A stretch of DNA of 64,000 nucleotides from an uncultured Oscillospiraceae bacterium (GTDB taxonomy: Bacteria; Bacillota; Clostridia; Oscillospirales; Oscillospiraceae), in contig CALXCU010000060.1 of NCBI GenBank assembly GCA_944386885.1, forward strand, positions 6,650 through 70,649, given 5' to 3'. The stretch's first letter is position 1, and each line of letters starts with the position of its first letter. Of this stretch, positions 30,541 through 49,649 are shown one piece after another. The position numbers and the translations under genes were made by a program. The notes below the pieces were generated by a model. That model was not told where the DNA came from, did no database searches, and saw only the letters and a list, made by a program, of their open reading frames with translations.

Positions 30541-30857
30541 AAAAAAGCCCCGTCCTAATTTCTAGGACGAAGCTTCTCCTCCGTGGTACCACCTAATTTC
30601 ACGGCGGCATGATCCACCGTGCACTCGTCGCCCCGGTAACGGGGGGCCCGCCGGTCCGGTCTACTGACGGGGCAGGGACCCCGCGTTCCTCCGAACGGCT
30701 CCTGGGAGATGTTCCCTCCTCGGCCCTCACGGGGACTTACACCAACCGTCCCCTCTCTGCGCATCTTAAGCCGCGGGTACTTTTCCAGTCATTGCCACAT
30801 TTTCCATCTTTATCTCCCCAGCCCGAGCTGCTGTTCCAGCCAGAAAGGAGTGAAATT
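30541..30857 (-). promoter_or_regulatory. T-box riboswitch leader of ilvBNC
   Basis: On the - strand: the T-box sequence AAATTAGGTGGTACCACGG (plus-strand 30581-30599); the terminator CGTCCTA-GAAAT-TAGGACG + GGGGCTTTTTT (30541-30569); an AG bulge GCAGAGAG; a distal loop GGTTGGTGTAA closing GGGGAC/GTCCCC; AGTA in the specifier-loop 5' side; and a K-turn-like GGC-AATGA-CTGG / CCAG-GA-GCC. Confidence 0.85.
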
Positions 30858-43330: not shown

Positions 43331-43368
43331 AAGACCGGCGCGGCCTGATCGGCCGCGCCGGTCTTTTC
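43331..43368 (+). terminator. Rho-independent terminator
   Basis: aagaccggcgcggcc-tgatc-ggccgcgccggtctt followed by ttcc. Confidence 0.8.
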
Positions 43369-43404
43369 CTGTTCCAAGCTTCTGATTACGGGTTAATTGG
43401 TTCG

Positions 43405-43437
43405 AATTTTACCTAAATTTTACTAAAATTTGACCAG
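43405..43437 (+). repeat. Three tandem 11-bp direct repeats (AATTTTACCTA AATTTTACTAA AATTTGACCAG)
   Basis: Read directly. One-helical-turn periodicity, about 85 bp upstream of the sigI promoter motif. Confidence 0.6.
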
Positions 43438-43518
43438 GTACAGAATACGCCCATCCCTTTTTTACCGTAAAATAGGAAAATAGCATTTCGTATTCTCTTT
43501 TTTTGAATGATTCGCATA

Positions 43519-43554
43519 GCGACCCCGAAAATCCGGCTGCAGCTTCGTATGCTA
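43519..43554 (+). promoter_or_regulatory. Sigma-I-type promoter candidate P1 (gcGACCCCG-N18-CGTATGCTA) upstream of sigI
   Basis: One of three copies of the same motif with identical 18-nt spacing. C-rich -35 and CGTA -10. Confidence 0.6.
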
Positions 43555-43577
43555 TTGCTGGAGGAGAAGATGGAGGG

Positions 43578-44330
43578 ATGCAGATGGTACGCACGGCGGA
43601 ACATGAAATCGTTTCCCAGGTCCGGGCGGCCAAGGCGGATACCGGTGCAGCTGACGCGCTGATCCGTCAGTACATGAGCTTTATCCGCAGCGAGACGGTG
43701 AAGTTTATCCACGCCCAGCCGGAAAACGGCCATGAAGATGAACTGAGCATCGCTATGCTGGCCTTTTATGAGGCGATCCTCGCCTATCAGCCGGGACGAG
43801 GCGCTTTCCTCTCCTTCGCGGCCAGAGCCATTCGAAACCGCCTCATCGACCACTACCGCACAGAGAAGCGCCACGGGAATGTCATCTCCCTCAATGCCCC
43901 CGCCGGGGCGGAAGAGGAGGAGCGGAGCCTGCTGGATACCCTGCCTGACGGGGCGGCAGATCACGCGGAGGACTATGCCCTCCGTACAGCCAGCCAGGCG
44001 GAAATCCAGGAATTTTCCGCCAAACTCTCCGGCTTTGGCATTACCTTTTCCGACGTGGCGGACAACTGTCCCCGGCAGGAGCGCACTTTGGCGGCCTGCC
44101 GCCGGGTGCTCGCCTGTGCCAGGGCCAACCCGGCGCTGCTCTCCCAGGTGGAAGAGACGGGCCGGCTGCCCATGGCCGAACTGGCAAAGCGCTCTGGGGT
44201 AGAGAAAAAGACTCTGGAGCGACACCGGAAATACCTGGTGGCCATTCTGCTGGCATTTACCAACGGCTATGAGATCATCCGGGGCCATCTCTGTCAGATT
44301 GGGCCCGCCAAGGGAGGGAGTGTGGAATGA
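43578..44330 (+). CDS. sigI: RNA polymerase sigma-I factor
   Basis: Region-2-like DELSIAMLAFYEAILAYQPGRGAFLSFAARAIRNRLIDHYR plus a SigI-type C-terminal domain (ITFSDVADNCPRQERT..., KYLVAILLAFTNGY). The start is 43578 or 43584. Overlaps rsgI by ATGA. Confidence 0.85.
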   Translation: MQMVRTAEHEIVSQVRAAKADTGAADALIRQYMSFIRSETVKFIHAQPENGHEDELSIAMLAFYEAILAYQPGRGAFLSFAARAIRNRLIDHYRTEKRHGNVISLNAPAGAEEEERSLLDTLPDGAADHAEDYALRTASQAEIQEFSAKLSGFGITFSDVADNCPRQERTLAACRRVLACARANPALLSQVEETGRLPMAELAKRSGVEKKTLERHRKYLVAILLAFTNGYEIIRGHLCQIGPAKGGSVE

Positions 44331-45349
44331 ACTATCTCGTGCTGGAGACCCACCCGGCCTATGCGGTCCTGTTGGACGAGGAGGGGCGCTTCCTCAAGGC
44401 GGCCAACCTCCACTACCAAGTGGGCGACACGGTGCAGAATATTGTGGAGCTGCGTCCCCCCCAGCCCCGCCGGGTCCATCCCGCCAAGCCTTTGGCGGGG
44501 GTGGCCGGCCTGGCCGCCTGCCTGTGCCTGGCCTTCTTCGGCTACTATCAGCCCAATTTTGTGGCCTACGGCACCCTGCGCATCCAGATCAATCCGGATG
44601 TGGAGATGACCCTCAGCCGCACCGACCGGGTCCTGGGGCTGGAAGGCCTCAATGCAGACGGCCTGATCCTGATAGACGGCTACGACTACCGGGGTAAAGA
44701 CCGGGATACCGCAGCGGAGGAACTGGTAGAACGGGCCATTGATATGGGCTACCTCTCCGACGGCGACACCATTTCCATTACGGTCAACAGCGGCGACGCT
44801 GGCTGGCAGAGCCGGGAGGAGGAGGAACTCCAGGCCCGGCTGGAGGAGAACTATGGTGAAACCATTGTCATCCAGGTTGGGGAGGCCGGGTCAGCCCCCG
44901 CCACAGAGGTGGTCATCCCCCTGCCGGTGGAAACCTCCGCACCGGCCCCCACTCCTCCGCCCACTGCCGCCCCCACCGCCGGGCCGGCCACATCCACCCC
45001 TGTCCCGATGCCGGAACCCACTTCCAGACCTACCGCGGCCCCTTTCCCCACACCGGTTCCTACGCCGGTCCCCACTCCAACGCCCGTGCCCGCCTCAACC
45101 CCCGGCGGTGACACGGACTACGGCCCCGGCGGCGACGGCGTCACCGATTACGGCCCCAACAACGACGGCGTCACCGACTATCAGGAGTCCTATGATCCCT
45201 ACCGAGATGGAGATACCGACTATGACAGGCGAGAAAACATTCTGAATGGCGGCCGGGACGAGGACGATGAGGATGATGAGGATGAAGATGACGGCGGGGA
45301 CGATGACGGAGATGACGGGGATATGGAAGAAGATGACGATAAGCGGTAA
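44327..45349 (+). CDS. rsgI: Anti-sigma-I factor RsgI-family protein with a Pro/Thr linker, acidic DYG repeats and a poly-acidic tail
   Basis: RsgI N-domain [34 protein letters not shown], a single TM segment [19 protein letters not shown], and a juxtamembrane domain INPDVEMTL...GLNADG. The C-terminus reads [24 protein letters not shown]...[22 protein letters not shown]. Confidence 0.85.
45110..45181 (+). repeat. Two copies of the DYGPxxDGVTDY repeat inside rsgI, with nucleotide identity to the downstream array
   Basis: tacggccccaacaacgacggcgtcaccgacta is identical to units of the 46329-46709 array. Confidence 0.8.
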
Positions 45350-45359
45350 TCTTTTTCCC

Positions 45360-45395
45360 GCAGCCCCGGTTTTCTCAGCCGCCTCTCGTATGCTA
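45360..45395 (+). promoter_or_regulatory. Sigma-I-type promoter candidate P2 (gcAGCCCCG-N18-CGTATGCTA)
   Basis: Same motif and spacing as P1. Located 11 nt after the rsgI stop. Confidence 0.55.
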
Positions 45396-45442
45396 CAGAT
45401 AGAAGCGGCGGGACCAGAAAAAAATCTTCATTTTTTCTCCCC

Positions 45443-45478
45443 GCGGCCCCGGTCTTCCAAGCCCCGCCCCGTATCCTA
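45443..45478 (+). promoter_or_regulatory. Sigma-I-type promoter candidate P3 (gcGGCCCCG-N18-CGTATCCTA)
   Basis: Same motif and spacing. Located 65 nt upstream of the lipoprotein start. Confidence 0.55.
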
Positions 45479-45542
45479 CCAACACAGAACACAAGCACCT
45501 GGAATACAAACCACACCCACTGTTTTTAAGGAGATGAACGAG

Positions 45543-46802
45543 ATGAAAAAGAAGTTCTATGGTAAGCTGTTCGGCCTGGGCCTGACCACCGCCCTGACCC
45601 TGACGGACCTGACCGCCTGTTCGGGCGGCACCGCAGCGGCCCCCACCGGTTCGGCCGCCCTCACGTCCCCCCCTTCCACCGCGCAGGAGGCCGGTTCCGA
45701 CTCTGTGGGCACCGTCCTGCTCAGCGTCAACCCCGAGATTGAGATGGACTATGACGATGCGGGCAACGTGGTGGCCCTCAACGGCCTCAACGACGACGGG
45801 AAGGCTGTCCTGGCCTCCTACACCGGCTATGAGGGCAGGGCCTGCACCACCGTCATCGGCGAGCTGGTGGACGAGATCAACGCCGGCGGCTATTTTGACG
45901 GCACCGTGGGCGGCCATGAGAAAAACATTGTCCTGAAGCTGGAACGGGGCTCCAAATACCCCAGCGAGACCTTCCTCACCGACCTGGCCGACGCGGTTCG
46001 GGTCACCGTGGAGACCGAGCAGATCGGCTCCCAGACTGTGGCTCTGGACGACGATGACTATGATGATACCTACGCCGATCAGGGCTACATCAACGCTACC
46101 GCCGCCCAGAGGATCGTCTCTACCCAGCTGGGCCGGGATGACCTCCAATTTGTGGAAAAAGAGTACGATCTGGATGACGGCGACTATGAGGTAGAATTCA
46201 CCCTGGACGGCGTGGAGTATGAGTATGAGGTCAACGCCGTCACCGGCAAAGTGACCGAAGTAGAAATAGACGGCTCCCGCCCCATTTCCAGCAGCCCTGT
46301 CACCACGACCGCCACTCCTGCACCCAACTATGACGACACCGATTACGGCCCCAACAGCGACGGCGTCACCGACTACGACGACACCGATTACGGCCCCAAC
46401 AGCGACGGCGTCACCGACTATGACGACACCGATTACGGCCCCAACAGCGACGGCGTCACCGACTATGACGACACCGATTACGGCCCTAACAACGACGGCG
46501 TCACCGACTACGACGACACCGATTACGGCCCTAACAACGACGGCGTCACCGACTACGACGACACCGACTACGGCCCTAACAACGACGGCGTCACCGACTA
46601 CGACGACACCGACTACGGCCCCAACAACGACGGCGTCACCGACTACGACGACACCGACTACGGCCCCAACAACGACGGCGTCACCGACTATGACGACACC
46701 GACTACGGGAACTGGGACGATGATGACGACGATGACGACGACTGGGACGGCGAAGACCATTGGAATGACGATGACGACGGTGATGACCGCTGGGACGACT
46801 AA
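45543..46802 (+). CDS. Lipoprotein with an RsgI-ectodomain-like domain, a PepSY domain, 8.5 x 15-aa acidic repeats and a poly-Asp/Trp tail
   Basis: AAGGAGA lies 8 nt before the ATG at 45543. Lipobox [13 protein letters not shown]...GLNDDG parallels RsgI. PepSY-like [13 protein letters not shown]...[23 protein letters not shown]. Repeats YDDTDYGPN(S/N)DGVTD. Tail [30 protein letters not shown]. Confidence 0.85.
46329..46709 (+). repeat. Tandem 45-bp repeat: 8 full units plus a 21-bp partial unit (in-frame, coding)
   Basis: Units start at 46329, 46374, 46419, 46464, 46509, 46554, 46599, 46644 and 46689. Only synonymous or near-synonymous differences occur (agc/aac, gat/gac, ccc/cct). Confidence 0.95.
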
Positions 46803-47481
46803 GCCCCTCCGCCTGCGGCATGAGGAAAAGCACCAGATCTCTCCCCTGGAGGATCTGGTGCTCGCCGGACGGCTGCGCCGCCTCTTTCCCTGGGACGCCC
46901 ACGCAGGGCGGGACGGTTCCTATCGGGTGAACAGCCTCTATTTTGATACCCCCTACGACGCTGCTCTGCGGGAGAAGCTGAACGGGGTGGACCGCCGGGA
47001 GAAGTTCCGCCTGCGCTATTACGGCACCGATCTCTCCTTCCTGCGCCTGGAGAAAAAATGCAAGCTCAACGGCCTGTGCGGCAAGCGCTCCGCCCGCCTG
47101 ACCCTGGATGAGGTCCAGCGCCTGCTCTCCGGGGACTACCGCTTCCTGCTGAAGCGGAAGGACCCTCTGCTCTGTGAATTTTACAGCAAGCTGCGGGGCA
47201 GCGCCCTCTCCCCCAGGGCCGTGGTATGCTACGACCGGGAGGCCTTTCTCTACCCGCCGGGCAATGTGCGCATTACCCTGGACCGGAACGTGCGCACGGG
47301 TCTGAGCTGGCAGAATTTCCTGGTCCCGGCGGCCCATCCGCTCAAGCCCCTGGGGAAGTTGACCGTACTGGAGGTCAAATACGACGCATTCCTGCCCGAC
47401 CTGGTCCGCCAGGCTGTCCAGGTGCCCGGCCGCCGGGCCGGCGCCTGCTCCAAATACGCCCTGTGCCGCCGGTACGACTGA
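46783..47481 (+). CDS. VTC domain (polyphosphate-polymerase domain) protein
   Basis: RHEEKHQIS...[12 protein letters not shown]...EKFRLRYY...LEKKCKLNG...VLEVKYD pattern. The start is uncertain: the only in-frame ATG/GTG codons (46765, 46771, 46780, 46783) lie inside the 3' end of the upstream gene. Confidence 0.75.
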
Positions 47482-47506
47482 ATCAAAACGCTAAGGAGGC
47501 CCACCC

Positions 47507-48181
47507 ATGACCACCTTTCAGGATATTTTCAAATCCAGCTTTTTGGAGCGCATGGACAGCGTCTCCCTGCTGGACACCGCCGCCGCCCTGGCCCTGGCCT
47601 TCCTGCTGGGCCTGTTCATCTTCCTGGTCTATAAACGCAGCTACAGCGGCGTCATGTACTCCCCCAGCTTTGGTGTGACACTCATCGCTCTGACTCTGAT
47701 CACCACGCTGCTGATTCTGGCGGTAACCAGCAACATTGTCCTCTCCCTGGGCATGGTGGGCGCACTGTCCATCGTCCGCTTCCGCACCGCCATCAAAGAA
47801 CCCCTGGACATCGCCTTCCTCTTCTGGGCCATTGCGGTGGGCATCGTGCTGGCCGCGGGGCTGCTGATCCTGGCGGTGGCGGGGAGCCTGTTCGTGGGCC
47901 TGGTGCTGCTGGCCTTCTCCCGGCAGAAGAACGGCGAGTCACCCTACATCCTGGTCGTCCGCTGCGCCTCTTCCCGGGAGGAGGCACAGGTCCAGGCTCT
48001 GGTAGCGGAGCGGGTGCGGCGGCTGAACCTGAAGAGCAAGAGCGTCTCTCCCGGGGAGATCGAGCTCAATTACGAGGTGCGCCTGCGGGAGGGGGACACT
48101 GGCTTTCTCAACGAGCTGGGCGCTATGGAGGGCGTGGAACATGTGGTATTGGTCTCCTACAACGGGGACTACATGGGCTGA
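47507..48181 (+). CDS. DUF4956 domain membrane protein
   Basis: AAGGAGG lies 7 nt upstream of the ATG. GALSIVRFRTAIKEPLDIAFLFWAIAVG motif, four TM segments and a soluble C-terminal domain. Confidence 0.8.
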   Translation: MTTFQDIFKSSFLERMDSVSLLDTAAALALAFLLGLFIFLVYKRSYSGVMYSPSFGVTLIALTLITTLLILAVTSNIVLSLGMVGALSIVRFRTAIKEPLDIAFLFWAIAVGIVLAAGLLILAVAGSLFVGLVLLAFSRQKNGESPYILVVRCASSREEAQVQALVAERVRRLNLKSKSVSPGEIELNYEVRLREGDTGFLNELGAMEGVEHVVLVSYNGDYMG

Positions 48182-48184
48182 GCC

Positions 48185-49603
48185 ATGATCCGCCACCGCT
48201 ACATCGACGGGATCTGCGCCCTGGCCATGGCATTGGCCCTGGTCTTGACCGCCCTGCTGGCCCACGGGGAGACTTTGGGCATCCAGAAAGCCTCCGCCGC
48301 ACCGGAGTACGCCTTCCGCCTCTTTGATGATAGCCGGGTCCACACCGTGGACCTCCAGGTGGAGGATTGGGAGGGATTCCTGGCCGCCGCACCGGCGGAG
48401 GAGTACGTCCCCTGTACCGTCACCGTGGACGGCGAGGCATTTTCCCAGGTCGGCCTGCGGGCCAAGGGGAACAATTCTCTGCGCCTGACCGAGGAATACG
48501 GCCTGTCCCGGTACAGCCTGAAGCTGGAGTTCGACCACTATTTGGACGGAGGCAGCTACCACGGCCTGGACAAATTCTCCCTAGACGCCTCCTTCCAGGA
48601 CAACAGTTACCTCAAGTCTTTTCTGGTCTACGACATGATGGACTCTATGGAGGTGCCCGCGCCCCTGTGCAGCTACGCCTGGGTCACGGTGAACGGGGTG
48701 CCCTGGGGGCTCTTTCTGGCCGTGGAGGAGCCGGAGGAGGCCTTCGCCCGGCGGAACTTCGGCGCGGACCACGGCCTGCTCTACAAGCCGGACTATCGCT
48801 CCCTGCGGGAGGAAAATGCCGATGTGGCCCTTCGGTATGTGGACAGCGACCCGGCGAGTTATCCCAATCTGTTCGAAAACGCCAAATTTGAGGTAGACGC
48901 GGCCGGTCAGGCCCGGCTCATCGAAGCCCTGCGGGTGCTCTCCACCGGGGAAGACCTGGAGCGGGCCGTAAATGTGGACGAGGTGCTGCGCTATTTCACG
49001 GTCCAGGTCTTTGTCATGAACTGGGACAGCTACCTGGGCCACACAGGGCACAATTACTTCCTCTACGAGGAGGACGGCGTGCTCTCCATCCTGCCCTGGG
49101 ATTACAACCTGGCCTTCGGCACCTACGCTCTGGGCATGACGGACCCCATCCGGGACCCCAACATCCTCATAAACTGGCCCATCAACACCCCCGCCCGGGG
49201 GGAGACTATGCTGGAGCGGCCTCTCTACCACAATCTCATGAAGAATAACGCCTATTTCGCACAGTACCACGCCTATTTCGACCAGTTCCTCACGGAGTAT
49301 CTGGAGAGCGGCCGCTGCGAGGCCCTGCTGCGGGAGACCCAGGCCCTCATCGCCCCCTATGTGGCCGCCGACCCCACCGCCTTCTGCACCTATGAGGACC
49401 ACCTCCTGGCAGTGGACACCCTGATCGAGGTCTGCCGCCTGCGCGCCCAGAGCGTCCGGGGACAGTTGGACGGGGCATATCCCGCCACCCTGGCCCAGCA
49501 GGCGGAGCACCCAGATCTGGGGGTGGACGCCTCCCATATCTCCCTCCAGGATCTCGGGGACTTTGAGGACCTGGAAGAGGCCGCCCGGCGGCTTTCCCGC
49601 TGA
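48185..49603 (+). CDS. CotH-family atypical kinase with an N-terminal signal/anchor (extracytoplasmic)
   Basis: Signal-like ICALAMALALVLTALLAHG. CotH-like FSLDASFQDNSYLKSFLVYDMM, LLYKPD, NWDSYLGHTGHNYFLY, LPWDYNLAFG. Starts 3 nt after the DUF4956 stop. Confidence 0.85.
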   Translation: MIRHRYIDGICALAMALALVLTALLAHGETLGIQKASAAPEYAFRLFDDSRVHTVDLQVEDWEGFLAAAPAEEYVPCTVTVDGEAFSQVGLRAKGNNSLRLTEEYGLSRYSLKLEFDHYLDGGSYHGLDKFSLDASFQDNSYLKSFLVYDMMDSMEVPAPLCSYAWVTVNGVPWGLFLAVEEPEEAFARRNFGADHGLLYKPDYRSLREENADVALRYVDSDPASYPNLFENAKFEVDAAGQARLIEALRVLSTGEDLERAVNVDEVLRYFTVQVFVMNWDSYLGHTGHNYFLYEEDGVLSILPWDYNLAFGTYALGMTDPIRDPNILINWPINTPARGETMLERPLYHNLMKNNAYFAQYHAYFDQFLTEYLESGRCEALLRETQALIAPYVAADPTAFCTYEDHLLAVDTLIEVCRLRAQSVRGQLDGAYPATLAQQAEHPDLGVDASHISLQDLGDFEDLEEAARRLSR

Positions 49604-49616
49604 ACCAAAACAGAAA

Positions 49617-49649
49617 GCCGCGCCCATCTCATCTGGGCGCGGCCTTTTT
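49617..49649. terminator. Bidirectional terminator between CotH and the convergent serA
   Basis: gccgcgccca-(7 nt)-tgggcgcggc followed by cttttt. An A-run lies upstream for the opposite strand. Confidence 0.8.

Follow-up and report, generated by a model that had tools for sequence, protein, structure and literature searches.

Two described sigma-I systems stand closest to the locus reported here. In Bacillus subtilis, sigI and rsgI form a gene pair with an autoregulated promoter, RsgI is a single-pass anti-sigma factor that carries a SEAL domain and a disordered extracytoplasmic tail, and the output of the system is cell-wall genes (Brunet 2022, 2023). The disordered region of this RsgI works by composition and tolerates scrambling (Brunet). 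In Clostridium thermocellum, SigI1-8 and RsgI1-9 serve polysaccharide sensing. Here we describe a six-gene module in a 64,000-nucleotide (nt) stretch of contig CALXCU010000060.1 from an uncultured Oscillospiraceae bacterium (hereafter, the window). The module consists of a sigI-rsgI pair, a lipoprotein gene and a trio encoding a VTC-domain protein, a DUF4956 membrane protein and a CotH-type kinase, and its conserved promoters point to sigma-I control of the whole set.

The module shares with B. subtilis the sigI-rsgI pair, the single-pass anti-sigma protein with SEAL domain and disordered tail, and an autoregulated promoter spaced as ACCCCC--AA N15 CGAA. The two systems part ways in the tail, which is a composition-only region there and a conserved, almost purely acidic Tyr-containing repeat here; in the regulon, to which a further SEAL protein, lipid-anchored and bearing the same tail, belongs here; and in the output, which is VTC-DUF4956-CotH rather than cell-wall genes. 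In C. thermocellum as in the module, the periplasmic domain has Asn-Pro in its first hairpin, and the two also share a CGWA -10 element, a C-rich and A/T-tract -35 element, and a small dedicated regulon per sigma-I. Unlike in that organism, RsgI here bears no carbohydrate-binding module, the regulon is not cellulosomal, and one sigI-rsgI pair per locus travels with its target operon.

The trio itself is known from other settings. Its members are accessory genes contiguous with pel in streptococci, clostridia and bifidobacteria (Whitfield 2020). In Streptococcus intermedius (SIR_1592-1594), DUF4956 and CotH mutants make less Pel and aggregate less, and the authors did not find the trio outside Pel loci (mBio 2025). 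The Pel-associated trio comprises the same three families in the same predicted locations as ours (secreted CotH, cytoplasmic polymerase-like protein, MgtC-like membrane protein), whereas the window has neither pel genes nor DUF4832, runs in the order VTC-DUF4956-CotH and places the trio under predicted sigma-I control. A table for the Clostridium perfringens locus NELoc-2 places VTC, DUF4956 and CotH immediately after a sigI-like gene and the gene of a 348-aa 'cell wall' protein (Lepp 2010). Compared by this published table only, NELoc-2 differs from the window in that no lipoprotein is listed, and its further genes encode a 685-aa protein, a HEAT protein and a chitin-synthase-like glycosyltransferase (GT), in the order of a Planococcus plasmid described below. 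A search of the full-text literature on DUF4956 and bacterial VTC domains found no functional study. An earlier note on this DNA, made from the sequence alone, had stated that no description of sigma-I control of the trio or of the repeat family was known. This is roughly right, except that the NELoc-2 table already lists sigI beside the trio, without comment.

Gene order and predicted sigma-I promoters

All six genes run in one direction between two terminators (43331-49643, + strand), as read from the open reading frame (ORF) list and the sequence. The features of the module are as follows.

43331..43365, + strand: intrinsic terminator; 15-bp stem with 12 GC pairs, T-run after it; -34 kcal/mol, z -6.6
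43523..43549, + strand: sigma-I-type promoter of sigI-rsgI; CCCC-ga-AA-N15-CGTA; predicted start near 43560
43578..44330, + strand: sigI, 250 aa; ATG 43578 behind GGAGG; length as in homologues
44327..45349, + strand: rsgI; 4-nt ATGA overlap with sigI
45364..45390, + strand: first sigma-I-type promoter of the lipoprotein operon; CCCC-gg-TT-N15-CGTA
45447..45473, + strand: second sigma-I-type promoter of the lipoprotein operon; predicted start near 45484, 59-nt leader
45543..46802, + strand: lipoprotein gene, 419 aa; 193-nt gap from rsgI; lipobox LTAC
46783..47481, + strand: VTC gene, 232 aa; start taken at the last in-frame ATG, overlaps the lipoprotein gene by 20 nt
47507..48181, + strand: DUF4956 gene, 224 aa; 25-nt gap from VTC
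48185..49603, + strand: CotH gene, 472 aa; 3-nt gap from DUF4956
49617..49643, + strand: intrinsic terminator, bidirectional hairpin, T-run after it; -26.5 kcal/mol, z -5.4; right boundary

The terminator at 43331-43365 belongs to the upstream M20-peptidase genes and sets the left boundary of the module. The earlier note had drawn the six co-directional genes, their junctions and both terminators, together with three copies of a promoter motif, two of them in the gap between rsgI and the lipoprotein gene; the ORF list, sequence and folding bear out the former, and a motif scan recovers the latter. Its further proposal that the six genes act as one unit is supported by conservation of the whole set in other genomes.

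SigI matches Sigma70_r2 (E 2e-9) and, near full length, ten NCBIfam SigI models (best E 1e-45). By these profile matches the window SigI is a divergent member of the sigma-I family. No transmembrane (TM) segment is predicted from its hydropathy. The mechanical ORF begins earlier, at TTG 43503, and the ATG at 43578 is preferred.

The window promoters all read CCCC-N2-WW-N15-CGTA, with a tract that is mostly T, not A. Their layout agrees with the published sigma-I consensus, given as 'ACCCCC--AA N15 CGAA' for Bacillales (PMC4711584) and as 'C-----AAA N13-14 CGWA' for clostridia (PMC4711584, PMC10575876). The promoter at 43523-43549 ends 29 nt before the sigI ATG, which predicts a leader of 18 nt; leaders of 16-22 nt are listed for several C. 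thermocellum sigI genes (PMC4711584). A loose pattern, CCCC-N19-CGTA, has four matches on both strands of the 64-kb window, and three of the four lie on the coding strand in the two intergenic regions of the module.

Conservation carries the assignment further. Across 19 non-redundant sigI-linked loci of other genomes, a consensus gaCCCCgrTTTT-N13-CGTAwtCTA emerges ahead of both sigI and the lipoprotein gene, with spacers that drift between genera and CCCC and CGTA boxes that stay constant. The layout stands ahead of sigI in most related loci, and at least one sigma-I-type promoter precedes the lipoprotein gene in 18 of the 19 (the exception is L021). A strict motif, CCCC..WWW-N14-CGTA, matches 42 times in the 350 kb of these loci, 40 times between sigI and VTC, and four times in 967 kb of sigI-less loci, which is a strong enrichment against the background. 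The position of the promoter at 45364-45390 is kept in Flavonifractor, Intestinimonas and Pseudoflavonifractor loci, and the doubled lipoprotein promoter recurs in five related loci, from this same group and an Oscillospiraceae metagenome-assembled genome (MAG; L020). Two loci that hold the lipoprotein gene with no adjacent sigI keep the sigma-I layout before it, one with CGCA instead of CGTA. In two others (L022 and L024), sigI-rsgI and the lipoprotein operon are divergent, on opposite strands, and each unit has its own sigma-I-type promoter. The promoter motif that the earlier note saw before both sigI and the lipoprotein gene is thus shared by about 20 species from several Clostridia families. 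Control by sigma-I of both sigI-rsgI and lipoprotein-VTC-DUF4956-CotH is well supported in silico, and we regard this regulatory part of the explanation developed below as likely.

RsgI, a lipid-anchored paralogue and their acidic tails

RsgI is built of a putative N-terminal anti-sigma segment, one TM helix (residues 56-74), a SEAL/RsgI_M domain, a Pro/Thr linker and an acidic D/Y tail. The RsgI_M match is clear (E 8.6e-21), with the Asn-Pro site in INPDVE; Asn-Pro is the autocleavage site of RsgI proteins (PMC10328401). rsgI lies directly 3' of sigI in related loci too, with two divergent exceptions. The length of the Pro/Thr linker differs between strains.

The lipoprotein proved to hold the same kind of domain, which had been overlooked in the earlier note. 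It matches RsgI_M (E 1.6e-14) and PepSY (27.5 bits against a cut-off of 24), with its Asn-Pro site in VNPEIE; the Asn-Pro is kept in both SEAL domains in nearly all related loci. The AlphaFold2 (AF2) model has an ordered core at residues 52-242, with a pLDDT (predicted local distance difference test) of 80-96. Foldseek places this core closest to the B. subtilis RsgI SEAL domain (8T9N; E 4e-6, TM score 0.78), and the next matches are periplasmic domains of C. thermocellum RsgI. Residues 243-416, comprising repeats and tail, are predicted to be disordered, the repeats at a pLDDT of about 35. On this evidence from sequence and predicted fold, the lipoprotein is a paralogue of the RsgI sensor, a lipid-anchored copy of the sensor's outer part that can probably be shed. 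A related arrangement is known from the SEAL-PepSY proteins, such as Dysosmobacter welbionis EIO64_09220, which likewise has a signal peptide, SEAL and PepSY and whose autoproteolysis has been demonstrated (Brunet 2023). SEAL-PepSY fusions have been described without a disordered region, whereas the window lipoprotein carries about 175 residues of disordered acidic repeat and is encoded between rsgI and VTC.

The two tails belong together. In the lipoprotein gene, Tandem Repeats Finder reports 8.5 copies of a 45-nt unit at 46327-46708 (score 666), followed by a poly-Asp/Trp tail; rsgI has 2.3 copies of the same sequence family at 45112-45180, encoding DYGPNxDGVTDY repeats. The match between the repeats of RsgI and the lipoprotein, first pointed out in the earlier note, thus extends to one family of acidic D/Y tails. 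Flavonifractor has perfect 15-residue repeats in both proteins, with five copies in RsgI and 6-10 copies in the lipoprotein. All that the tails of the most distant loci still share is a core of (S/T)-(D/N/G)-Y-D-D. RsgI and lipoprotein tails from one genome are slightly more similar than tails from different genomes (3-mer overlap of 0.31 and 0.23, respectively; permutation p 2e-4). Acidic D/Y-rich tails are confined to these two proteins and are absent from all the loci of two-component type described below.

Between strains that share the same context, the lipoprotein differs in repeat number, with 6, 10 and 9 in the Flavonifractor contigs L001-L003 (6878/6698/6743-8035) and 7, 5 and 5 in Intestinimonas L004-L006. 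Gene conversion between the rsgI and lipoprotein tails was considered and set aside: the exact DNA words shared by cognate pairs are no longer than those of non-cognate pairs, and with no such excess there is no evidence for ongoing conversion; what is left is a modest match at the protein level. A 455-aa antisense ORF at 45393-46760 (- strand) is an artefact of repeat DNA that lacks stop codons in other frames.

What might such a tail sense? One answer would be that RsgI is a generic cell-wall-integrity sensor of the B. subtilis kind, its tail probing gaps in the peptidoglycan and the operon being one of many outputs. The shared architecture, SEAL followed by a disordered C-terminal region, speaks for this. 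The 15-residue motif, however, with its aromatic residues, is nearly invariant among lipoprotein homologues across genera, while the B. subtilis region tolerates scrambling; the same motif is duplicated on a second protein; and within the window the promoter motif marks this module only. We consider a generic wall sensor very improbable. The near invariance of the motif, unlike the composition-only region of B. subtilis, instead points to a specific partner, be it an ion, a polymer or an enzyme. Read by eye, the repeat holds N-x-D-G-x-x-D-x-x-D, which resembles calcium-binding loops; a Pfam search of RsgI and the lipoprotein up to E 10 returned no calcium-binding repeat family of thrombospondin type 3, EF-hand or dockerin-like kind.

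The trio proteins and a predicted surface product

The VTC protein consists of the VTC domain only (Pfam PF09359, E 2e-30), has no TM segment and is predicted to be cytoplasmic. Its family profile matches the catalytic domain of Vtc4 (3G3Q, E 5e-11); the single sequence found no match in the PDB, and the family profile was required to reach Vtc4. Residues invariant in the family (R76, R78, K92, E197, K199 and K224) align with the Vtc4 tunnel motifs HRLRWY, VERK, LEVK and SKF. Like the yeast VTC complex, then, the window appears to pair a catalytic tunnel domain of conserved Arg, Lys and Glu with a membrane protein. Unlike yeast VTC, the window protein has neither an SPX domain nor a VTC-type, DUF202-like TM domain, and its membrane neighbour is a separate, MgtC-like DUF4956 protein. 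This likeness makes VTC a candidate Vtc4-like polyphosphate (polyP) polymerase.

Three longer VTC relatives (P0191, P0206 and P0252; 442-620 aa) have N-terminal extensions of 190-390 residues that abound in Lys, Arg and Glu, are in part tandemly repeated and belong to no Pfam family. The suspicion that such long database proteins were frame artefacts was rejected; the extensions are real. Being basic and disordered, they might bind the enzyme's product.

The start of VTC is tied to the lipoprotein gene. The VTC motif RHExK begins 14-23 nt past the lipoprotein stop in 22 of 26 loci, or in 18 of 22 once strain duplicates are removed, so close that the VTC start must lie inside the lipoprotein gene. 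Accordingly placed, the overlap is conserved, and the two genes are predicted to be translationally coupled. In the window (46765-46802), and at this position in the 22 loci too, the VTC start is formed by the lipoprotein's poly-Asp codons: a shift of one base turns GAT GAC into ATG AC. A 383-aa ORF at 46330-47481 (+ strand) that extends VTC upstream, and an Extensin-like Pfam match, were discarded as artefacts of repeat DNA read in a different frame.

DUF4956 matches its Pfam family at 46 bits (cut-off 30.6) and has about five predicted TM helices; by the positive-inside pattern of charges, its C-terminal, putatively ACT-like domain would face the cytoplasm. It also resembles MgtC/SapB (NF007431, E 3.6e-5), at 23.5 bits well below the family cut-off of 214. 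The AF2 model, of moderate confidence (pLDDT 66), has as its top Foldseek matches the MgtC C-terminal domains 2LQJ and 7QA5 (E 4e-3, TM score 0.67), and these structural relatives were found through the ACT-like domain only. The likeness to MgtC agrees with the published description of SIR_1592.

CotH is recognized by Pfam PF08757 (E 4.5e-56) and aligns to Bacillus cereus CotH (5JD9), the catalytic D228 falling in NWD and the metal-binding D251 in PWD. The Asp pair is 23 residues apart in 5JD9; in the window protein the distance is greater by four additional residues (LGHT). A hydrophobic segment at residues 7-25, of a kind present at the N terminus of 79 of 80 homologues, predicts that CotH is extracytoplasmic, either secreted or anchored. 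Topology prediction therefore supports the earlier placement of CotH, the lipoprotein and the RsgI tail outside the cytoplasm and of VTC within it. The setting has something in common with B. subtilis, where cotH adjoins the genes of its tandem-repeat substrates (PMC7821199): in both, a CotH kinase with its catalytic Asp is encoded beside a disordered tandem-repeat protein. CotG and CotB of B. subtilis, however, are mother-cell spore-coat proteins with basic, Ser-rich repeats, whereas the repeats here are exported, acidic and rich in Thr and Tyr. Nor does this CotH have a spore-coat context, given its N-terminal signal or anchor, the lack of coat genes nearby and a sigma-I operon of vegetative type.

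The form of CotH varies with the lipoprotein. It is minimal, at 440-535 aa, in all 24 loci that have a lipoprotein gene and a scorable CotH (in L007, CotH is cut at the contig end). Where the lipoprotein is absent, CotH usually contains a low-complexity insert in its interior and disordered sequence at its C terminus, and 35 of 60 such proteins have a C-terminal membrane anchor. This pattern, a correlation only, fits disordered tails that would work with CotH in cis or in trans. The inserts (L027-L086; for example L037 8462-10642 and L041 11385-13877) are rich in D, G, M, P, S and F, one example being DFSDMDFSNMDFSDM.

The explanation we favour, by a modest margin over doubt, is a sigma-I/RsgI module whose regulon is the module itself plus a four-gene envelope operon, with a phosphate-rich product at the cell surface. 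By homology with studied RsgI proteins, RsgI would hold sigma-I at the membrane with its SEAL domain already cut at Asn-Pro. Some action on the acidic tail would release the outer RsgI fragment, intramembrane proteolysis would follow, and sigma-I would be freed. As the conserved promoters suggest, sigma-I would then transcribe both units, sigI-rsgI by way of a single promoter and lipoprotein-VTC-DUF4956-CotH by way of two promoters in tandem. The predicted products are a lipid-anchored copy of the sensor (SEAL, PepSY and acidic tail), a Vtc4-like polymerase, its MgtC-like partner and a CotH-type kinase. The trio would most likely make a phosphate-rich modification or polymer at the cell surface, for which the acidic, Ser/Thr/Tyr-rich tails may serve as scaffold, as cation-bridged binding partner or as CotH substrate. 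Because the lipoprotein bears the sensor's own tail, it may act as a competitor or partner that feeds the surface state back to RsgI.

Several observations weigh against parts of this explanation. All SigI scores fall below the NCBIfam equivalog cut-offs, and the RsgI_N match (PF12791) is weak (E 0.012, 15.9 bits against a cut-off of 25). The RsgI of Intestinimonas has no DYGPNxDG repeat and ends in a short acidic Tyr-containing tail only. At the DNA level, cognate tails match no better than non-cognate ones. Most trios in the 80-species sample described below occur without sigI, lipoprotein or D/Y-repeat protein, so a repeat protein cannot be the trio's universal substrate. Neither the AF2 model, Foldseek nor the sequence gives DUF4956 a channel-like feature, and export of polyP through it is suggested by analogy only. 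MgtC is a regulator rather than a channel.

The earlier note had gone further and proposed a closed loop, in which VTC makes polyP, DUF4956 exports it, CotH modifies the Thr/Tyr repeats of the lipoprotein and RsgI, with polyP or ATP as phosphate donor, and the state of the RsgI tail, phosphorylated or bound to polyP and cations, sets sigma-I activity. The predicted topology fits such a loop, the catalytic residues are kept in VTC and CotH, and even the minimal tail motif, (S/T)-(D/N/G)-Y-D-D, offers a hydroxyl residue in an acidic context. Translational coupling of the lipoprotein to VTC, the absence of disordered inserts from CotH wherever a lipoprotein gene is present and CotH can be scored, and the B. 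subtilis precedent of cotH beside tandem-repeat substrate genes (PMC7821199) would also be in keeping with it. Yet the loop needs a channel that DUF4956 does not resemble and acidic substrates where those known for CotH are basic and Ser-rich, and it has to accommodate both the repeat-less RsgI of Intestinimonas and the many lineages that carry the trio without any repeat protein. We judge the full loop unlikely.

A variant would supply its own phosphate donor. VTC, docked on the MgtC-like protein, would feed polyP to the outside, CotH would use it there to phosphorylate Ser, Thr and Tyr in acidic tails, and RsgI would read their phosphorylation or polyP-cation state by mechanical release at the autocleaved SEAL. 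The tails would sit on the SEAL lipoprotein in the sigma-I clade and on CotH itself in two-component-regulated relatives. We offer this outward phosphorylation system as a speculation, with the odds heavily against it. Our preferred reading keeps to the sigma-I module and a phosphate-rich surface product, and leaves the role of the tails among the options given above.

Spread of the trio, genomic setting and significance

VTC relatives are numerous, forming 4,795 clusters. A profile of 90 diverse VTC proteins, scanned against one genome per species, gave at least 598 matches, and the best 80 were fetched with 10-kb flanks; this 80-species sample over-represents relatives of the window. Almost every sample locus has DUF4956 after VTC, and CotH comes next in 76 of 87 analysed sources. 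The trio is common here as a stand-alone operon, unlike what the S. intermedius authors reported. The regulators found upstream of it are listed below.

Complete sigI-rsgI-lipoprotein: 16 loci of 80
Cut at contig end: 4 loci, with the lipoprotein 3' end visible (3) or a same-clade VTC (1)
OmpR-type response regulator and histidine kinase directly upstream: 26 loci
Response regulator and histidine kinase within 10 kb: 12 loci
No regulator detected: 12 loci
Lipoprotein, no sigI within 10 kb: 2 loci
Cut, unclassifiable: 8 loci

The complete module spans Oscillospiraceae, Lachnospiraceae-named MAGs and one Tissierellia MAG, in unrelated flanks. All loci whose VTC is at least 60% identical to that of the window are of sigma-I type, as is the Tissierellia MAG at 50%. 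Lipoprotein homologues at 53-55% identity again sit in the full six-gene module with new flanks. The sigma-I link is real and conserved, and confined to a single clade of the trio that accounts for a small share of the 4,795 VTC clusters. The claim that the trio is a recurrent one is confirmed in the sample, and the co-occurrence check that the earlier note had proposed comes out divided: within one clade the association with sigI is conserved, and most trios have neither sigI nor a repeat protein.

In the loci L026-L086, a two-component pair about 2 kb upstream of VTC, co-directional or divergent, takes the place of sigI-rsgI-lipoprotein in 26 species. Hidden Markov models (HMMs) built from the 19 sigI and from the SEAL proteins found no hidden sigI or SEAL genes near loci of this type. 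Their histidine kinases have an outside loop of 110-160 residues in 21 of the 22 scored. That such extracytoplasmic-sensing systems stand where sigI-rsgI would otherwise be is in keeping with an envelope response that can be induced.

More distant trios occur beside glycan genes. On a Planococcus maritimus plasmid (L088, NZ_CP059541.1, 4470-12824), it is followed by a 689-aa protein with no Pfam match, a HEAT protein and a chitin-synthase-like GT of family 2 (GT2). On plasmid pNP95 of Pseudobutyrivibrio xylanivorans (L087), it lies within a large polysaccharide-synthesis cluster, in the order CotH-VTC-DUF4956.

These settings bear on an alternative in which the trio acts on a surface glycan or exopolysaccharide (EPS) and the tails are a pure sensor of divalent cations, cationic polymers or peptides, neither substrate nor product. 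The trio is contiguous with pel genes and required for full Pel-dependent aggregation in S. intermedius; it lies in the EPS cluster of the Pseudobutyrivibrio plasmid, and both Planococcus and C. perfringens NELoc-2 have it beside a chitin-synthase-like GT2 and a HEAT protein. The confinement of D/Y repeats to sigma-I-type regulation, and the resemblance of N-x-D-G-x-x-D-x-x-D to calcium-binding loops, would suit a tail that only senses. The sigma-I-type loci, however, have no glycan-synthesis genes within 10 kb, and Pfam gave no calcium-binding repeat family for the tails at E up to 10. The conserved overlap between the lipoprotein gene and VTC suggests a tie that goes beyond co-regulation, and the lipoprotein stays with the trio even where sigI is not adjacent. 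We give a glycan role with a purely sensory tail a low probability, and prefer the sigma-I module with a phosphate-rich surface product.

In the window itself, the module is flanked by M20 peptidase genes upstream and by serA/serC downstream on the opposite strand. Its base composition (GC) does not set it apart from its flanks and so gives no hint of a recent transfer; a megablast search of plasmids with the module found no match. PADLOC anti-phage defence models matched none of the six module proteins. An Rfam scan found nothing inside the module, its sole match in the window being a full-length T-box leader at 30560-30801 on the - strand (RF00230, 97 bits).

What is new here is a sigma-I/RsgI system whose sensor tail is undescribed, whose regulon holds a SEAL lipoprotein paralogous to the sensor, and whose output, the trio, is undescribed for such systems. 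For the sigma-I/RsgI field, the conserved acidic Tyr-repeat tail is an additional sensor type, and a regulon with a lipid-anchored copy of the sensor's ectodomain, one that can probably be shed, is a new design. For polyphosphate biology, the VTC protein is a candidate bacterial Vtc4-type enzyme outside the PPK1/PPK2 paradigm. The trio is widespread in Firmicutes, and the sole available genetics links it to Pel-dependent aggregation. Because a dedicated sigma-I switch, with a defined promoter and a deletable anti-sigma factor, stands before it here, the function of the trio is directly testable in culturable gut genera that carry the module, such as Flavonifractor, Intestinimonas and Pseudoflavonifractor.

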